Shown in pieces: positions 1-53,556 of a DNA stretch of 64,000 bases. Location of the stretch: assembly GCF_003790525.1 (NCBI RefSeq), contig NZ_CP033634.1. One strand, given 5' to 3'. Under the pieces are notes generated by a model that did no database searches, had not been told where the DNA came from, and worked only from the letters and a program-made list of their open reading frames with translations. This DNA comes from Escherichia coli (GTDB lineage Bacteria; Pseudomonadota; Gammaproteobacteria; Enterobacterales; Enterobacteriaceae). Numbering within the stretch: position 1 is the first letter of the stretch; each line of letters begins with the position of its first letter. The position numbers and the translations under genes are program-made.

Positions 1-1320
1 CCCAACCGCAGCTACAGCAAACTGGTGGACACACTGCTTTCCATCAAAATTGAAAAACTGCGTACCTTCCTGCGTAATTCACCGGCAGCCAACCTGGTGG
101 AAGAGAAAATTGAGAAAACGGCGATTTCCATCCGTGCTGTGCTGACCAACTACGTGAAAGCCATCCGTTACCTGCAGGGGATTGAGCATAACGGTGAGTC
201 TTTTACCATCCGTGACTGGATGCGTGGTGTCCGGGAAGATCAGAAAAACGGCTGGCTGTTTATCTCGTCGAATGCCGACACCCATGCCTCCCTGAAGCCG
301 GTGATCTCCATGTGGCTGTCCATTGCCATTCGTGGTCTGCTGGCAATGGGAGAAAACCGTAACCGTCGTGTGTGGTTTTTCTGTGACGAGTTACCCACGT
401 TACACAAACTGCCGGACCTGGTGGAGATCCTGCCGGAAGCCCGTAAGTTCGGTGGCTGTTATGTGTTTGGTATCCAGTCCTATGCCCAGCTGGAAGATAT
501 CTACGGTGAGAAAGCGGCGGCCACGCTGTTTGACGTCATGAACACCCGTGCTTTTTTCCGTTCCCCGAGCCATAAGATTGCAGAGTTCGCTGCCGGTGAG
601 ATTGGTGAGAAAGAGCACCTGAAAGCCAGCGAGCAGTATTCCTACGGTGCTGACCCGGTACGTGACGGGGTATCGACCGGTAAGGATATGGAGCGTCAGA
701 CACTGGTCAGTTATTCCGACATTCAGTCTCTGCCGGATCTGACCTGCTATGTCACTCTGCCCGGACCGTATCCGGCAGTAAAACTCTCCCTGAAATATCA
801 GGCACGACCGAAGGTCGCTCCGGAGTTTATTCCGCGTGACATCAACCCGGAAATGGAGAACCGTCTGAGTGCCGTACTTGCTGCAAGGGAAGCAGAAGGT
901 CGCCAGATGGCCAGCCTCTTCGAACCGGAGGTTGCCTCCGGAGAAGGCGTGACTCAGGCTGAACAGCCACAACAGCCACAACAGCCACAACAGCCACAAC
1001 AGCCACAACAGCCACAACAGCCACAACAGCCACAACAGCCAGTGTCTTCTGTCATGAATGATAAGAAGTCAGATGCAGGTGTGAGTGTTCCGGCAGGGGG
1101 GATCGAGCAGGAGCTGAAAATGAAACCGGAAGAAGAGATGGAACAGCAACTGCCACCCGGGATCAGTGAATCCGGTGAAGTGGTGGATATGGCCGCTTAT
1201 GAGGCATGGCAACAGGAAAATCATCCGGACATCCAGCAGCAGATGCAGCGTCGTGAAGAGGTGAACATTAATGTGCACCGGGAGCGCGGGGAGGATGTTG
1301 AGCCGGGAGATGATTTCTGA
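1..1320 (+). CDS. traD: Conjugative coupling protein TraD, C-terminal part (gene begins upstream of window)
   Basis: Open frame from nt 1 to TGA at 1318-1320; C-terminus has the QPQ repeat array and ...EDVEPGDDF tail typical of F-like TraD; stop overlaps the traI ATG. Confidence 0.93.
964..1041 (+). repeat. 9-bp tandem repeat (CAGCCACAA x8 plus partial unit) encoding the TraD C-terminal QPQ array
   Basis: Read directly from sequence. Confidence 0.9.
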
Positions 1321-4300
1321 TGTTGAGTTTTAGCGTTGTTAAATCGGCAGGCAGTGCCGGAAACTATTACACCGACAAGGATAATTACTATGTGCTGGGT
1401 AGCATGGGAGAACGCTGGGCCGGTCAGGGGGCTGAACAGCTTGGGCTGCAGGGCAGCGTCGATAAGGATGTTTTTACCCGTCTTCTGGAGGGCAGGCTGC
1501 CGGACGGGGCGGATTTAAGCCGCATGCAGGATGGCAGTAATAAGCATCGTCCCGGCTACGACCTGACCTTCTCCGCCCCCAAAAGTGTCTCCATGATGGC
1601 CATGCTCGGGGGGATAAACGTCTTATTGATGCACATAACCAGGCTGTGGATTTTGCTGTCCGTCAGGTGGAGGCGCTGGCTTCCACACGGGTGATGACGG
1701 ACGGACAGTCAGAAACGGTGCTGACCGGTAATCTGGTGATGGCACTGTTTAACCATGACACCAGTCGCGATCAGGACCCACAGTTACACACGCATGTGGT
1801 GGTGGCTAATGTCACGCAGCATAACGGCGAGTGGAAGACACTGAGCAGTGACAAAGTGGGGAAAACCGGATTTTCCGAGAACGTGCTCGCGAACCGGATT
1901 GCGTTCGGGAAAATATATCAGAGTGAGTTACGTCAGCGCGTTGAGGCGCTGGGTTATGAAACCGAAGTGGTCGGTAAGCACGGTATGTGGGAGATGCCGG
2001 GCGTACCGGTGGAGGCCTTTTCCGGACGCTCACAGGCTATCCGGGAGGCCGTCGGGGAAGATGCCTCGCTGAAATCCCGGGATGTGGCGGCACTGGATAC
2101 GCGAAAATCCAAACAGCACGTCGATCCGGAAATCAGAATGGCTGAATGGATGCAGACGCTGAAGGAAACCGGGTTCGACATCCGGGCATATCGTGACGCG
2201 GCGGATCAGCGTGCGGAGACCCGCACGCAGGCGCCCGGGGCTGTTTCACAGGAGGGGCCGGATGTGCAGCAGGCGGTGACACAGGCCATTGCCGGATTAA
2301 GTGAACGAAAAGTGCAGTTCACGTATACGGACGTGCTGGCCAGGACGGTCGGCATACTGCCGCCGGAAAATGGTGTGATTGAACGGGCACGCGCCGGTAT
2401 CGATGAGGCCATCAGCCGTGAGCAGCTTGTCCCCCTCGATCGTGAGAAGGGGCTGTTCACGTCCGGGATTCATGTGCTCGATGAGCTGTCAGTCCGGGCA
2501 CTCAGTCGTGACATCATGAAACAGAACCGGGTGACCGTACATCCGGAGAAAAGTGTCCCCCGGACGGCCGGTTACAGCGATGCCGTCAGTGTTCTGGCAC
2601 AGGATCGCCCGTCGCTGGCCATTGTGTCCGGGCAGGGCGGTGCAGCCGGGCAGCGTGAGCGGGTGGCTGAACTGGTCATGATGGCCCGGGAGCAGGGGCG
2701 GGAGGTGCAGATTATCGCTGCTGACCGTCGCTCGCAGATGAACCTGAAGCAGGATGAACGGCTGTCCGGTGAGCTGATAACCGGACGTCGTCAGCTGCAG
2801 GAGGGCATGGTCTTCACGCCGGGCAGTACCGTTATCGTTGACCAGGGCGAAAAACTCTCCCTGAAAGAGACGTTAACCCTGCTGGACGGTGCCGCACGTC
2901 ATAACGTACAGGTCCTGATAACCGACAGCGGGCAGCGAACCGGTACAGGCAGTGCGCTGATGGCCATGAAGGATGCCGGGGTGAACACGTATCGCTGGCA
3001 GGGCGGAGAACAGCGACCGGCCACCATCATCAGTGAACCGGACCGGAATGTCCGCTATGACCGGCTGGCCGGAGATTTTGCGGCCAGCGTGAAAGCCGGA
3101 GAAGAGAGCGTGGCACAGGTCAGCGGGGTACGGGAACAGGCCATACTGACACAGGCCATTCGCAGTGAGCTGAAAACACAGGGCGTGCTCGGACACCCGG
3201 AGGTGACCATGACCGCCCTGTCACCGGTCTGGCTGGACAGCCGGAGCCGTTATCTGCGGGATATGTACCGACCGGGGATGGTGATGGAGCAGTGGAACCC
3301 GGAGACACGCAGTCATGACCGCTATGTTATCGACCGGGTGACGGCGCAGAGTCACAGCCTGACCCTGCGGGATGCGCAGGGCGAAACGCAGGTGGTGCGT
3401 ATTTCCTCCCTGGACAGCAGCTGGTCGCTGTTCCGGCCGGAAAAAATGCCGGTGGCAGACGGCGAGCGACTGAGGGTGACAGGGAAAATTCCCGGACTCC
3501 GCGTCTCCGGCGGTGACCGCCTGCAGGTGGCATCCGTCAGTGAAGATGCGATGACGGTTGTTGTGCCGGGGCGGGCTGAACCGGCCACCCTGCCTGTGGC
3601 TGATTCACCGTTCACGGCACTGAAGCTGGAGAACGGCTGGGTGGAAACGCCCGGGCATTCCGTCAGCGACAGTGCGAAGGTTTTTGCCTCCGTCACACAG
3701 ATGGCAATGGACAACGCCACCCTGAACGGTCTGGCCCGCAGTGGTCGTGATGTCCGGCTGTATTCTTCACTGGATGAAACCCGTACTGCGGAAAAACTTG
3801 CCCGCCATCCCTCCTTTACGGTGGTTTCTGAGCAGATAAAGGCGCGTGCCGGTGAGACATTGCTGGAAACCGCTATCAGTCTGCAGAAAGCCGGGCTTCA
3901 CACGCCGGCACAGCAGGCTATTCATCTGGCCCTTCCTGTGCTGGAAAGTAAAAACCTGGCCTTCAGCATGGTGGACCTGCTGACAGAGGCGAAGTCGTTT
4001 GCTGCAGAAGGAACCAGTTTTACTGAACTGGGAGGGGAAATCAATGCGCAGATAAAACGCGGTGATTTACTGTATGTGGATGTGGCAAAAGGCTATGGCA
4101 CAGGCCTGCTGGTTTCCCGTGCGTCGTATGAGGCAGAAAAGAGCATTCTTCGCCATATTCTCGAAGGTAAGGAGGCGGTCACGCCGCTGATGGAGAGAGT
4201 ACCTGGCGAACTCATGGAGAAACTGACATCAGGACAGCGTGCCGCCACCCGCATGATACTGGAAACGTCCGACCGTTTCACGGTGGTGCAGGGCTATGCC

Positions 4301-6589
4301 GGTGTGGGTAAGACCACACAGTTCCGGGCGGTGATGTCAGCCGTGAACATGCTGCCGGAGAGTGAGCGTCCCCGTGTCGTTGGGCTGGGTCCCACGCACC
4401 GCGCGGTCGGGGAGATGCGCAGCGCCGGCGTGGATGCACAGACACTGGCGTCCTTTCTGCATGACACGCAGCTGCAGCAGCGCAGCGGAGAAACGCCGGA
4501 TTTCAGCAACACGCTGTTCCTGCTCGATGAGAGCTCAATGGTGGGCAATACCGACATGGCACGGGCATACGCCCTGATTGCGGCCGGTGGCGGTCGTGCT
4601 GTGGCCAGCGGTGACACGGACCAGCTGCAGGCCATCGCGCCCGGTCAGCCTTTCCGTCTCCAGCAGACGCGCAGTGCTGCCGATGTGGTCATCATGAAGG
4701 AGATTGTGCGTCAGACGCCGGAACTGCGGGAGGCGGTATACAGCCTGATTAACCGGGATGTGGAAAGGGCACTGTCCGGGCTTGAGAGTGTGAAACCGTC
4801 TCAGGTTCCCCGTCAGGAGGGCGCATGGGCACCGGAGCACTCCGTGACGGAGTTCAGTCACAGCCAGGAAGCGAAACTGGCAGAAGCGCAGCAGAAGGCG
4901 ATGCTGAAAGGCGAGGCTTTCCCGGATATCCCCATGACACTGTATGAAGCCATTGTCCGCGACTATACCGGCAGGACACCGGAAGCACGGGAGCAGACGC
5001 TGATTGTCACACACCTGAATGAGGACCGGCGCGTACTGAACAGCATGATTCATGATGCACGGGAAAAGGCCGGTGAGCTGGGCAAAGAGCAGGTCATGGT
5101 GCCTGTCCTGAACACAGCGAATATACGTGACGGAGAACTGCGTCGTCTCTCCACCTGGGAGAATAACCCGGATGCCCTTGCCCTGGTGGATAGTGTGTAT
5201 CACCGGATTGCCGGTATCAGCAAGGATGACGGGCTGATAACCCTGCAGGATGCGGAAGGTAACACGCGGCTGATTTCGCCCCGGGAGGCGGTGGCTGAAG
5301 GCGTCACACTGTACACCCCGGACACCATCCGGGTGGGAACCGGTGACCGGATGCGCTTCACGAAGAGTGACCGGGAGCGCGGTTATGTGGCCAACAGCGT
5401 CTGGACGGTGACAGCGGTTTCAGGTGACAGTGTCACGTTGTCGGACGGACAGCAGACCCGGGTGATTCGCCCCGGTCAGGAGCGGGCAGAGCAACATATT
5501 GACCTGGCTTATGCCATCACCGCCCACGGTGCGCAGGGGGCAAGTGAAACCTTTGCCATCGCGCTTGAAGGCACGGAAGGTAACCGGAAACTGATGGCAG
5601 GCTTTGAGTCAGCTTATGTAGCCCTGTCGCGTATGAAGCAGCATGTGCAGGTGTACACCGATAACCGTCAGGGCTGGACGGATGCCATCAACAATGCCGT
5701 ACAGAAAGGAACTGCCCACGATGTGTTTGAACCGAAACCGGACCGGGAGGTCATGAATGCAGAGCGGCTGTTCAGTACGGCGCGGGAGCTGCGGGACGTG
5801 GCGGCAGGCCGTGCCGTTCTTCGTCAGGCGGGACTTGCCGGGGGAGACAGTCCTGCACGGTTTATTGCTCCGGGACGTAAATATCCGCAACCGTATGTGG
5901 CACTGCCGGCTTTTGACCGTAACGGCAGGTCCGCCGGTATCTGGCTGAACCCGCTGACCACGGATGACGGAAACGGGCTGCGGGGATTCAGCGGTGAAGG
6001 CCGGGTGAAAGGCAGCGGGGATGCACAGTTTGTGGCCCTGCAGGGCAGCCGTAACGGAGAGAGCCTGCTGGCTGATAATATGCAGGATGGTGTCCGGATT
6101 GCCCGTGATAATCCTGACAGCGGTGTGGTGGTGAGAATCGCCGGTGAAGGCCGTCCGTGGAATCCCGGTGCCATCACCGGTGGTCGCGTGTGGGGGGATA
6201 TCCCGGACAACAGCGTCCAGCCGGGGGCCGGAAATGGTGAACCGGTTACAGCTGAAGTGCTGGCACAGCGGCAGGCTGAAGAGGCCATCCGCCGTGAAAC
6301 GGAACGTCGCGCAGATGAAATTGTCCGTAAAATGGCAGAGAACAAACCTGACCTGCCGGATGGCAGAACAGAGCAGGCTGTCAGGGAGATTGCCGGGCAG
6401 GAGCGTGACCGGGCTGCCATAACTGAACGGGAAGCCGCGCTGCCGGAGAGTGTGCTGCGTGAATCACAACGGGAGCGGGAAGCGGTCCGGGAGGTTGCCC
6501 GGGAAAATCTGCTGCAGGAGCGTCTGCAGCAGATGGAGCGGGATATGGTCCGTGACCTGCAGAAAGAGAAAACCCTGGGCGGAGACTGA
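1320..6589 (+). CDS. traI: TraI relaxase/helicase; frame interrupted by an apparent 1-nt loss in a G6 run near 1608-1613 (ORFs 1320-1694 and 1646-6589)
   Basis: N-terminus [35 protein letters not shown] and the 1647-aa downstream ORF both match recalled F TraI; the two ORFs are in different frames and together give full length. Confidence 0.85.
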
Positions 6590-34986: not shown

Positions 34987-35849
34987 GCTTAGTCAGCCGT
35001 TGTCTCCGGGTGTCGCGTGCGCAGTTGCACGTCATTCTCAGACGAACCGATGACTGGATGGATGGCCGCCGCAGTCGTCACACTGATGATACGGATGTGC
35101 TTCTCCGTATACACCATGTTATCGGAGAGCTGCCCACGTATGGTTATCGTCGGGTATGGGCGCTGCTTCGCAGACAGGCAGAACTTGATGGTATGCCTGC
35201 GATCAATGCCAAACGTGTTTACCGGATCATGCGCCAGAATGCGCTGTTGCTTGAGCGAAAACCTGCTGTACCGCCATCGAAACGGGCACATACAGGCAGA
35301 GTGGCCGTGAAAGAAAGCAATCAGCGATGGTGCTCTGACGGGTTCGAGTTCTGCTGTGATAACGGAGAGAGACTGCGTGTCACGTTCGCGCTGGACTGCT
35401 GTGATCGTGAGGCACTGCACTGGGCGGTCACTACCGGCGGCTTCAACAGTGAAACAGTACAGGACGTCATGCCAGGAGCGGTGGAACGCCGCTTCGGCAA
35501 CGATCTTCCGTCGTCTCCAGTGGAGTGGCTGACGGATAATGGTTCATGCTACCGGGCTAATGAAACACGCCAGTTCGCCCGGATGTTGGGACTTGAACCG
35601 AAGAACACGGCGGTGCGGAGTCCGGAGAGTAACGGAATAGCAGAGAGCTTCGTGAAAACGATAAAGCGTGACTACATCAGTATCATGCCCAAACCAGACG
35701 GGTTAACGGCAGCAAAGAACCTTGCAGAGGCGTTCGAGCATTATAACGAATGGCATCCGCATAGTGCGCTGGGTTATCGCTCGCCACGGGAATATCTGCG
35801 GCAGCGGGCTTGTAATGGGTTAAGTGATAACAGATGTCTGGAAATATAG
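34944..35849 (+). CDS. insD: IS2 OrfB (InsD) transposase catalytic part (expressed as OrfAB frameshift fusion)
   Basis: DDE integrase-like ORF overlapping orfA in the -1 frame. Confidence 0.92.
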
Positions 35850-42531: not shown

Positions 42532-42720
42532 TACAGGGGCAGGCGGTGGAGGCCGCCTGTCAGCCCGCGCGAAAACCCCTGGCAGGCTGACGCCTGCCGG
42601 AAGGGAAGCGGGCCACGCTGGCGCGTCGCCCGTTACCCTTCCCGTCTGTGATGTGTCTGACTCAGGAGTGTTTCTTTCTTATGTTATGGAACTGTTCCTG
42701 ATGTTGTTGTTCCTTTATCT

Positions 42721-43335
42721 GCTGCTCTGATTCTGACTACTGCAGTGTTGTTCTGTCTGCCGGGCGCACCTTCGGCTCCCGGCTGCCTGGCGGCATCCGG
42801 TCGTCAGGCCCGACTCCGACAGGCAGCTGCTGGCGCACCCGCCAGTCTCCGCCGAACCCGCTGGCGCGGTTTCGGGCTGTCGCTACGGTCCGATGCGTGA
42901 AAACCCCGGGCTTGCAGCGACCGTTCCGGTCGCGCCGCCTCTGTCGCGCCGTGGCCTGCGCTCCAGGCATCCCGGCAAAAAGACGCCGGGATGTAAGGCG
43001 CAACGCCGTTTCGCAAACCGCGCTTCACGTCGTTGCTGCGGGTCCCTGCTCATTGCCTGCCGGGTGCCACACACCCGTATGAGTCCCTGTCGCCGGGGGC
43101 ATAGACAGCCACAACCTGCCGCACTGACTGTCCAGGGTAAATGAACAGCCCACAAAATTTTTTACCCAGAACCCGGTAAAAAATTTTGCGTTCTGCCCAG
43201 GACAGGTGCGTCAGGCCGTGGCAGTGATGCCCCTTGCGGCGAAGGTTCTCAAACGGGTGAAGTTCATACCACAGGGAATACAGCAGCAGGTTCCCGCGAA
43301 ACGTCAAAACCGCGGCTCCCGAAACTCAACGGGTG
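42721..43335 (+). repeat. Frpo/ssi-like leading-region repeat, copy 1 (putative single-stranded-DNA promoter element)
   Basis: About 600 bp of GC-rich non-coding sequence recurring near-identically at 46052-46675 and, with an internal deletion, at 51454-52010; each copy precedes a plus-strand gene cluster. Confidence 0.6.
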
Positions 43336-43570
43336 ATGTTCTTTAAAAATCAGGATTTATTTCAGGCTCCGGCAATACGCATTTATGTGTTCTGTCAGTC
43401 ATCCGGCTGGCAGGTAATGAGAACGCAGGAACAGAAGGAGGAAAACACCGGAGAACGTCAGACGCAGATATGAAAAAAGCAGGTCAGGGACCTGCTTAAT
43501 CCACGCCGTAAGAATTGCGCAACCAATTTTGACGGCATTGTTAACCAATTTGTCATAAGGAGTTTCATTT

Positions 43571-46040: not shown

Positions 46041-46051
46041 TCTTTTTCCTG

Positions 46052-46675
46052 CTGCTCTGATTCTGACTACTGCAGTGTTGTTCTGTCTGCCGGGCGCACC
46101 TTCGGCTCCCGGCTGCCTGGCGGCATCCGGTCGTCAGGCCCGACTCCGACAGGCAGCTGCTGGCGCACCTGCCAGTCTCCGCCGAACCCGCTGGCGCGGT
46201 TTCGGGCTGCCGCTACGGTCCGATGCGTGAAAACCCGGCTTGCAGCGACCGTTCCGGTCGCGCCGCCCCTGTCGCGCCGTGACCTGCGCTCCAGGCATCC
46301 CGGCAAAAAGACGCCGGGATGTAAGGCGCAACGCCGTTTCGCAAACCGCGCTTCACGTCGTTGCGGCGGGTCCCTGCCCGTTGTTGTGTCCGGTGCCATT
46401 CACCTGTTTAAGCCCCTGTCGCCGGGGGCTGATACAGCCACAACCTGCCGCACTGACTGTCCAGGGTAAATGAACAGCCCACAAAATTTTTTACCCAAAA
46501 CCCGGTAAAAAATTTTGCGTTCTGCCCAGGACAGGTGCGTCAGGCCGTGGCAGTGATGCCCCATGCGGCGAAGGTTCTCAAACAGGTGATGGTGAATACC
46601 GGAGGGAACAAAGAGCAGGTCCCCGCAAAACGTCAAAACCGCGGCTCCCGAAACTCAACAGATGATGGGGGCTGA
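46052..46675 (+). repeat. Frpo/ssi-like leading-region repeat, copy 2
   Basis: Near-identical to copy 1; lies directly upstream of ssb. Confidence 0.6.
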
Positions 46676-46700
46676 AAACATCAACAGAAGGAGACACATC

Positions 46701-51453: not shown

Positions 51454-52010
51454 CTGCTCTGATTCTGACTACTGCAGTGTTGTCCTGTCTGCTGGCGCAC
51501 CTGCCAGTCTCCGCCGAACCCGCTGGCGCGGTTTCGGGCTGTCGCTACGGTCCGATGCGTGAAAACCCCGGGCTTGCAGCGACCGTTCCGGTCGCGCCGC
51601 CTCTGTCGCGCCGTGGCCTGCGCTCCTGGCATCCCGGCAAAAAGACGCCGGGATGTAAGGCGCAACGCCGTTTCGCAAACCGCGCTTCACGTCGTTGCTG
51701 CGGGTCCCTGCCCGTTGTTGTGTCCGGTGCCATTCACCTGTTTAAGCCCCTGTCGCCGGGGGCTGATACAGCCACAACCTGCCGCACTGACTGTCCAGGG
51801 TAAATGAACAGCCCACAAAATTTTTTACCCAAAACCCGGTAAAAAATTTTGCGTTCTGCCCAGGACAGGTGCGTCAGGCCGTGGCAGTGATGCCCCTTGC
51901 GGCGAAGGTTCTCAAACAGGTGATGGTGAATACCGGAGGGAACAAAGAGCAGGTCCCCGCAAAACGTCAAAACCGCGGCTCCCGAAACTCAACAGATGAT
52001 GGGGGCTGAA
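51454..52010 (+). repeat. Frpo/ssi-like leading-region repeat, copy 3 (about 70-bp internal deletion relative to copies 1 and 2)
   Basis: Same start (ctgctctgattctgactactgcagtgttg) and end (cgtcaaaaccgcggctcccgaaactcaac) as the other copies. Confidence 0.6.
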
Positions 52011-52438
52011 AACCAGAGAGAGGAGAAAGCTGGATGAGTACCCGAAATATCCACGTTAACACCGCGTCGTACACGATTCTTGTTGCCGGGAGGGAAAAAA
52101 CACCGGGGAAGAGTGGGACGTCCTGGAATTCAGCAGCCTGACTGAGCTGAAAAAATATCGCAAAAGCCACCCGGAAAAGATGGCCTTCAGCTATAGCTAC
52201 GCGCTCAGCCGGGGTGTGGATACGCAGTTCCGCCATATCAACATTGCGGAAGCCGATCACTTCAAACAGTTCCTGCGTCAGATTAAGCGTGCCGGCCTCG
52301 ATATCCGGGCGATCTGCTGACCGGATGTGATGAATATCCCTCCTGATTGTTGCAATCTTGTTAATGGAGATCGGGAGAGATGATATTAAGCGGAAAAATT
52401 TTTTATTAAATTTATTCTTTCATAAAGGAGTAGCTGTT

Positions 52439-53260
52439 ATGCGATTAGCTTCCCGTTTTGGTCGGTATAATTCCATCCGTCGTGAACGTCCTTTAACGGA
52501 TGATGAATTAATGCAGTTCGTGCCTTCGGTATTTTCCGGTGATAAACATGAGTCCCGGAGTGAACGTTATACGTATATTCCAACAATCAATATCATCAAT
52601 AAGTTACGTGATGAAGGTTTCCAGCCATTCTTTGCCTGTCAGAGTCGGGTTCGTGATTTGGGACGCCGCGAATACAGTAAACATATGTTACGTCTTCGCA
52701 GGGAAGGGCATATTAACGGGCAGGAAGTTCCTGAAATTATCCTGCTTAATTCACATGATGGTTCATCCAGTTATCAGATGATCCCCGGAATTTTTCGTTT
52801 TGTCTGCACAAATGGCCTGGTGTGCGGAAATAATTTTGGCGAAATCCGTGTTCCACATAAAGGTGATATTGTCGGGCAGGTTATCGAGGGAGCGTATGAA
52901 GTGCTCGGTGTCTTTGATAAGGTCACTGATAATATGGAGGCGATGAAAGAAATTCATCTTAACAGTGACGAGCAACATTTATTTGGCAGAGCTGCACTGA
53001 TGGTCAGGTATGAAGATGAAAATAAAACGCCAGTGACACCTGAACAGATAATTACTCCCCGTCGTCGGGAAGATAAACAGAACGATCTCTGGACAACCTG
53101 GCAGCGGGTTCAGGAGAATATGATAAAAGGTGGATTATCGGGGCGAAGTGCCTCCGGGAAAAATACCAGGACAAGAGCCATTACAGGTATTGATGGTGAT
53201 ATAAGAATCAACAAGGCGTTATGGGTGATTGCCGAACAGTTCAGAAAGTGGAAGTCATGA
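52439..53260 (+). CDS. DUF932-like leading-region protein
   Basis: 273 aa from the ATG at 52439 (AAGGAG upstream), MRLASRFGRYNSIRRERPLTDDELMQF...; the gene nearest oriT on the leading side. Confidence 0.7.
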   Translation: MRLASRFGRYNSIRRERPLTDDELMQFVPSVFSGDKHESRSERYTYIPTINIINKLRDEGFQPFFACQSRVRDLGRREYSKHMLRLRREGHINGQEVPEIILLNSHDGSSSYQMIPGIFRFVCTNGLVCGNNFGEIRVPHKGDIVGQVIEGAYEVLGVFDKVTDNMEAMKEIHLNSDEQHLFGRAALMVRYEDENKTPVTPEQIITPRRREDKQNDLWTTWQRVQENMIKGGLSGRSASGKNTRTRAITGIDGDIRINKALWVIAEQFRKWKS

Positions 53261-53556
53261 TAATATAAGTAAAGCCCCGAAAAAATTTTCGGGGCTTTAC
53301 TTATATTATCATTTTTCGGCATTGCTGTGTCGTCTGATATACCTCAATTTCATCGACCGGCTTTCCGGTTGTCTGTAAATATTGTGCCCGCGAAAAATGG
53401 TCTGGCAGGAGGCTGCGCAGTTACCGGGTATATATAAGATGGGTTCCCGCTTCGCGGGGCTTCGGCCAGTCAGTATTGTCACTCATATGATATTTTTGTG
53501 TGTGGCCTTCCATGCCGCTTTTGCGGCATAACCGGTATCTGACAATGTCTGTAAGA

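Follow-up and report, generated by a model that had tools for sequence, protein, structure and literature searches.

The window, by which we mean the whole 64,000-nucleotide stretch of DNA analysed here, carries between the Frpo-like copy nearest oriT and a DUF932 gene two reading frames that overlap on the plus strand (Table 1). As the preliminary description had reported, an ATG at 52034 preceded by AGGAGA, a motif unchanged across aligned ygeA orthologues, opens a frame of 35 codons that ends with a TGA at 52139-52141 (MSTRNIHVNTASYTILVAGREKTPGKSGTSWNSAA), and a long open stretch lies in the +2 frame. This second frame, starting at 52036, contains a TAA at 52057-52059 and is then open from 52060 to a TGA at 52318-52320, so that the two frames overlap at 52060-52138. 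Because of this overlap, an indel joining them must fall within that interval, which contains runs of six A (A6, 52095-52100) and of four G (G4, 52105-52108). An indel in one or other of these runs, placed jointly at 52094-52108, had been proposed; alignment of orthologues singled out the A run, and the G4 run was ruled out as the site, being invariant among all aligned orthologues.

Table 1 Features of the Frpo1-ygeA-ygeB region, in window coordinates
Feature	Position	Strand	Basis or comment
Putative Frpo-like ssDNA promoter hairpin, copy nearest oriT	51489-52013	-	Equivalent to F Frpo1/ssp1a
Shine-Dalgarno AGGAGA of ygeA	52021-52026	+	Read from sequence; 8 nt ahead of ATG 52034
ygeA (yubO-type), frameshifted allele as written	52034-52320	+	287 nt, against 288 nt in intact orthologues
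Truncated ygeA product as written	52034-52141	+	35 codons (22 native and 13 out-of-frame residues), TGA
A6 homopolymer, site of 1-nt deletion	52095-52100	+	Alignments; A7 in closest relatives
Out-of-frame ygeA remainder, codons 24-95 and stop	52102-52320	+	tblastn, family alignments, AlphaFold2 model
ygeB (DUF932), intact second operon gene	52439-53260	+	Pfam PF06067, E = 2.3e-52
Terminator-like hairpin closing the ygeA-ygeB unit	53261-53308	+	20-pair stem

Gene identity and synteny

A 601-nt query around the site matched at least 5000 PLSDB plasmids and 4152 complete E. coli genome records, almost all of them F-like plasmids. The top matches were all 602 nt long; the exact window sequence was not found in PLSDB or in the complete E. 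coli genome set, and the best matches always carried a 1-nt gap. At the corresponding position, between the hok/sok-Frpo region and the DUF932 gene, thousands of F-like plasmids encode an intact 288-nt (95-aa) gene annotated as 'hypothetical protein' (WP_000107526.1, WP_000107535.1 or WP_000107542.1). The continuous 95-codon frame is present in F (NC_002483, 64032-64319), MW800637, CP144508, CP057541, CP010147, pLH50-c-D and pGZM7d. The preliminary description had suggested a comparison with orthologous leading regions and had named a short ORF standing by itself in them as the outcome that would speak against a frameshifted gene; these regions instead contain a single continuous gene, and the A6 allele is rare (15 of 2409 E. 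coli records, 8 of 2486 PLSDB records).

Where the closest relatives read GGGAGGGAAAAAAAC, the window reads GGGAGGGAAAAAAC, with a single A missing. Its ygeA DNA is otherwise that of MW800637 and pGZM7d (A6 against A7), and the same holds for the other plasmids with the WP_000107526.1 allele (pLH50-c-D and CP144508). Adding one A yields the annotated 288-nt CDS of WP_000107526.1 base for base and a translation identical to it (MSTRNIHVNTASYTILVAGREKNTGEEWDVLEF...RAIC), in line with the earlier suspicion of a frameshifted small gene. When F YgeA was used as a tblastn query, residues 1-26 aligned at 52034-52111 and residues 22-95 at 52096-52317 in the other frame, the latter with 100% identity. 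That one added base recovers a CDS found in many plasmids is beyond chance.

The surroundings of the gene agree with those in plasmid F. The gene order in the window is hok/sok, Frpo, ygeA, DUF932, SLT (ygfA, transglycosylase), oriT and traM; in F, ygeA is followed by a DUF932 gene, an oppositely oriented SLT (transglycosylase) gene, oriT and traM. These genes are called ygeA, ygeB and ygfA in the literature (PMC9849209; 10.1101/2025.05.27.656304), in which Frpo1 of F is placed 'upstream ygeA and ygeB' (PMC9849209) and ygeB adjoins ygfA (10.1101/2025.05.27.656304). Because the position and neighbours of the F gene match these names, we assign the locus to a frameshifted ygeA. F ygeA (WP_000107542.1) resembles the window gene in position and neighbours, and its product is identical to that of the repaired window gene at 92 of 95 residues (I15L, R20K and E21K), including all of residues 22-95. 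The two differ in the tract itself: F-type alleles have A8 within AAGAAAAAAAAC, an AAGA-run context, and read GGGAAGAAAAAAAAC, whereas the window has A6 in an AGGGA-run context and is out of frame after codon 22.

Taken with its full-length similarity to intact ygeA and YubO-type members and its synteny (Frpo hairpin upstream; ygeB, ygfA and oriT downstream), the window gene is a family member by descent, and with its frame shifted after codon 22 in place of an uninterrupted frame of ~95 codons, it is a pseudogene or null allele as written. We are thus highly confident both of the identity of 52034-52320 as ygeA and of the lesion as a single-base homopolymer contraction. Together, the two short frames make up a single known F-plasmid gene of 95 codons that carries an ordinary homopolymer frameshift, a kind of allele that is already known, and the locus should be annotated as ygeA (frameshifted) and not as two hypothetical ORFs.

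The Frpo1-ygeA-ygeB unit and the effect of the lesion

The unit would consist of the Frpo1 hairpin, ygeA as first cistron, ygeB and a terminator. The segment 51489-52013 ahead of ygeA matches both the corresponding sequence upstream of ygeA in F and the other Frpo-like copies of the window (about 42713-43338 and 46042-46679). Folded as single-stranded DNA, the minus strand of 51500-52033 reaches -156.4 kcal/mol (z = -10.8 compared with shuffles), and the hairpin is predicted to form in the strand that is transferred and that serves as template for ygeA. A role as an Frpo-type promoter is assigned by analogy to F (PMC9849209). On the plus strand, no sigma-70-like duplex promoter was predicted upstream of ygeA, and no terminator-like site was found between ygeA and ygeB. 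The YgeB proteins of the window and of F share 99.3% identity over 273 aa.

In F, YgeA-sfGFP was seen in transconjugants before complementary-strand synthesis (Couturier et al. 2023, PMC9849209), and production of YgeA requires Frpo1 and ends once the DNA is duplex (PMC9849209). Deletion of ygeA lowered the transconjugant frequency from 92.6% in the wild type to 3.9%, a drop of about 20-fold, and a deletion of ygeB only could not be constructed (PMC9849209). By our own reading of the order of the F phenotypes, YgeA and YgeB probably act together, because ΔygeA was worse than ΔFrpo1ΔygeA, itself worse than ΔFrpo1ΔygeAB. By analogy, the transferred single strand entering a recipient would normally use the upstream Frpo hairpin as promoter, and YgeA would be made transiently, before a complementary strand exists, as shown in F and suggested here by orthology and synteny. 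From the conserved hairpin and the absence of a duplex promoter, we infer that expression of the window genes likewise depends on Frpo1 and single-stranded DNA.

Two observations concern the Frpo-like sequences themselves. The window has three copies (Table 1 and the two positions given above), and F has been described with two. In RefSeq relatives, NCBI's annotation pipeline PGAP calls parts of the Frpo hairpins 'single-stranded DNA-binding protein, frameshifted' (locus L005, 5955-6160; locus L017, 4224-4429), and these pseudogene calls look like annotation artefacts on a non-coding ssDNA promoter.

Loss of one A from the A7 tract at codons 21-23 (GAA AAA AAC) shifts the frame after Lys22 and brings in a stop 13 codons further on. 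As written, ygeA is predicted to be a null allele, because the conserved residues and nearly the whole predicted fold are downstream of the shift. In family alignments, E48, Y54, H76 and F80 are invariant, and all of these core residues, spanning β2 to α2, are encoded within 52102-52320. The confident AlphaFold2 model of repaired YgeA (pLDDT 82.6, pTM 0.72) has the topology β14-21, β29-33, α36-45, β52-62, β68-74 and α77-86, a small beta-beta-alpha-beta-beta-alpha fold. Sequence searches with YgeA of Pfam, NCBIfam, PHROGs and PDB sequences gave no match, and no structural relatives of the model were detected in the PDB or BFVD. The ygeA/YubO-type family, for which Pfam and NCBIfam have no model, is small: its profile has 82 representatives among 1.84 billion proteins, and it lies mainly on Enterobacterales plasmids; two distant homologues are surrounded by runs of small unannotated genes, with no DUF932 partner. 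We found no mechanistic literature on the function of DUF932, ygeA or ygeB.

Run-length alleles and possible functions of the A tract

In-frame A7 or A8 alleles make up >95% of about 2400 records, and the intact gene is the ancestral form. Alleles frameshifted by run length (OFF alleles) account for 0.3-3.6% of records, the A6 group being largely clonal. For the F-type context, 88 of 2454 records show A7 and about 5 show A9. The pCoo-like plasmid lineage of enterotoxigenic E. coli (ETEC) is fixed for A6, and this allele is also found in pEC14_114, CP072912 and pEBM1, which have a different haplotype with A and not T at 52031. PGAP routinely labels such alleles 'frameshifted'.

The annotated examples resemble the window in the tract that is affected and differ from it in background. 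The 'frameshifted' pCoo/pFORC31.4/pGN4143-2 lineage (A6) is inactivated at the same poly-A tract, as are, with run lengths changed by ±1, pO103 and E. coli D10 plasmid A (A7 in the F-type context) and the ST131 plasmid pMB9366_1 (A9). These alleles sit on other haplotypes, whereas the window is otherwise pGZM7d-like, and in the pCoo-like lineage the ygeB gene is gone too, along with the 3' end of ygeA, whereas the window keeps an intact ygeB. The poly-A tract of ygeA is thus a recurrent inactivation site in public plasmids. In pO103 (NC_013354.1; locus L021, 3475-4697), both ygeA (A7, F-type) and ygeB are annotated as frameshifted and lie beside a degraded IS4 element; decay here extends to the entire Frpo1 operon of a virulence plasmid.

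The run varies repeatedly in length, by -1 as well as by +1, as would be expected if the A tract were a functional slippery site that sets the dose of YgeA or gives two products by ribosomal -1 frameshifting, transcriptional slippage or an ON/OFF switch at the DNA level. If the P-site tRNA-Lys slipped by -1 on GAA AAA A, the next codons read would be AAC ACC, restoring exactly the wild-type EKNT, and the dosage of ygeA matters for F conjugation (PMC9849209). We nevertheless consider programmed recoding or phase variation very improbable. The >95% of alleles that are simply in frame speak against it, as does the absence of a conserved two-frame arrangement in orthologues. Programmed -1 frameshifting and transcriptional slippage are known on A runs such as A AAA AAG of dnaX and the A6G/A7 motifs of IS elements, and the window shares with these a Lys-codon A run where two frames overlap; unlike them, it lacks a canonical heptamer, a stimulatory structure and a conserved split, the in-frame gene being the norm. 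The sequence A AAA ACA does not conform to X XXY YYZ, and at its zero-frame codons, GAA AAA ACA, only single-tRNA slippage in the P site would be expected to work. The region 3' of the run (52101-52170) folds with -12.8 kcal/mol (z = +0.64) and shows no stimulatory RNA structure, and a run of six A is short for efficient slippage of RNA polymerase. The tract is also not conserved in the family, other members having ADKPKNS, ADMPKKA or AENENNAA in its place, and many of the OFF alleles examined lie where the leading or transfer region has decayed, as in pCoo-like ETEC plasmids and pO103. Programmed frameshifting was therefore rejected for want of a heptamer, a downstream structure and conservation; nor does the locus look phase-variable, as OFF alleles are confined to the small fraction of records given above and several branches of the family lack the tract. 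It is also very unlikely that the tract, near the 5' end of ygeA, is a recurrent, selectable off-switch for a gene with a strong effect on transconjugant yield, possibly leaky through a -1 slip, and the window another independent OFF event; were this so, plasmids could tune or shed the YgeA/YgeB establishment function with the DNA retained. Two independent small genes, the 35-codon ORF and a downstream ORF such as the 46-codon ATG ORF at 52180-52320, exist mechanically, and the A6-allele record CP072912 annotates only a downstream ORF of 198 nt. Relatives, however, invariably have both parts in a single frame, no homologue has an equivalent of the 13 residues that follow the shift and PGAP calls such alleles frameshifted, so that comparison with orthologues effectively refutes two genes and leaves them almost no probability.

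Comparison with pGZM7d and the origin of the contraction

A near-isogenic plasmid, pGZM7d (NZ_CP129283.1), is about 99.95% identical to the window and collinear with it over about 62 kb. The two differ by 12 SNPs (7 transitions and 5 transversions) and have exactly two 1-nt indels between them, one in ygeA (A7 to A6) and one in traI (G7 to G6). In each case the window has lost a base from a 7-nt run, and a CDS that is intact in pGZM7d is broken. The gene traI (relaxase/helicase; window 1320-6589) is hit at about 1609-1614, where the window has G6 in CTCGGGGGGATAAAC; pGZM7d and nearly all relatives have G7. The contraction splits traI into 1320-1628 and 1610-6586, and only 5 of 3153 E. coli records share the exact G6 allele. 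Among the 23 runs of at least 7 nt shared with pGZM7d, 2 are contracted, 21, including both 8-nt runs, are unchanged and none is expanded. Because 16 of these 23 runs lie in a CDS, two deletions in coding sequence are unsurprising, and their coding location was discarded as an uninformative clue.

Copy numbers of tandem repeats also differ between the two plasmids. At about 46004, just upstream of the second Frpo copy, the window is short of four CTGCTA units (24 bp), and an 8-bp AAGATAAC-type unit has been lost at about 28660 and gained at about 29772, the two positions flanking a ParA-like partition gene.

We lean slightly towards an uncorrected homopolymer-length error in the assembly as the source of A6, because the only other 1-nt indel is of the same kind (G7 to G6) and breaks the essential traI. 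That A6 is instead a genuine mutation has a substantial, if less than even, chance: it would have arisen by replication slippage while conjugation decayed in a vertically inherited lineage, with traI likewise inactivated. Homopolymer contraction is the commonest spontaneous 1-nt indel, and in the pCoo-like ETEC plasmids A6 is a real, inherited allele, present in pEC14_114, CP072912 and pEBM1 as well. Since the pCoo-like plasmids were sequenced independently by many projects, the contraction does occur in nature, which argues against an error, as do the unchanged 8-nt runs, expected to be the most error-prone, and the real slippage relative to pGZM7d at the three tandem repeats. The 88 alleles in which A8 has become A7 include that of the Sanger-era pO103, with its frameshifted ygeB, and alongside 12 SNPs one or two neutral indels would not be surprising. 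Both broken genes serve conjugation, and a dead traI makes ygeA dispensable and free to decay, so the paired frameshifts are biologically coherent. Against a genuine mutation, both events fall in genes that are intact in >99% of records sharing the local sequence, and deletions in 7-nt runs are also the classic signature of long-read or 454 errors. The assembly is apparently long-read or finished, as we infer from the resolution of multiple IS26 and Frpo repeats in the window, and the split of transitions and transversions carries no mutator signature. The Dam/Dcm methylation-motif context of the window SNPs gave no convincing nanopore signature. The pattern of two contractions is explained as well by homopolymer under-calling as by real slippage in a plasmid on its way to losing conjugation, and there is little probability that anything other than error or mutation is involved.

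The traI frameshift should be checked together with that in ygeA. If both are errors, the record needs homopolymer polishing. Should both be real, the plasmid would have no relaxase and is predicted not to transfer itself; it would also be without a leading-region protein that is important for the yield of F transconjugants (PMC9849209).

Two further differences from pGZM7d lie elsewhere in the window. The IS26-bounded region at 18888-23500, with IS26 copies at about 18888-19708 and 19867-20689, is arranged unlike that of pGZM7d, whose integron/sul2 block is absent from the window; IS26 appears to have rearranged the resistance region. In an IS2-like element, an adjacent double difference at 35473-35474 sets GCCAGGAG, which contains a Dcm CCAGG site, in the window against GCTGGGAG in pGZM7d, and may be a methylation-related base-calling oddity of pGZM7d and not of the window.
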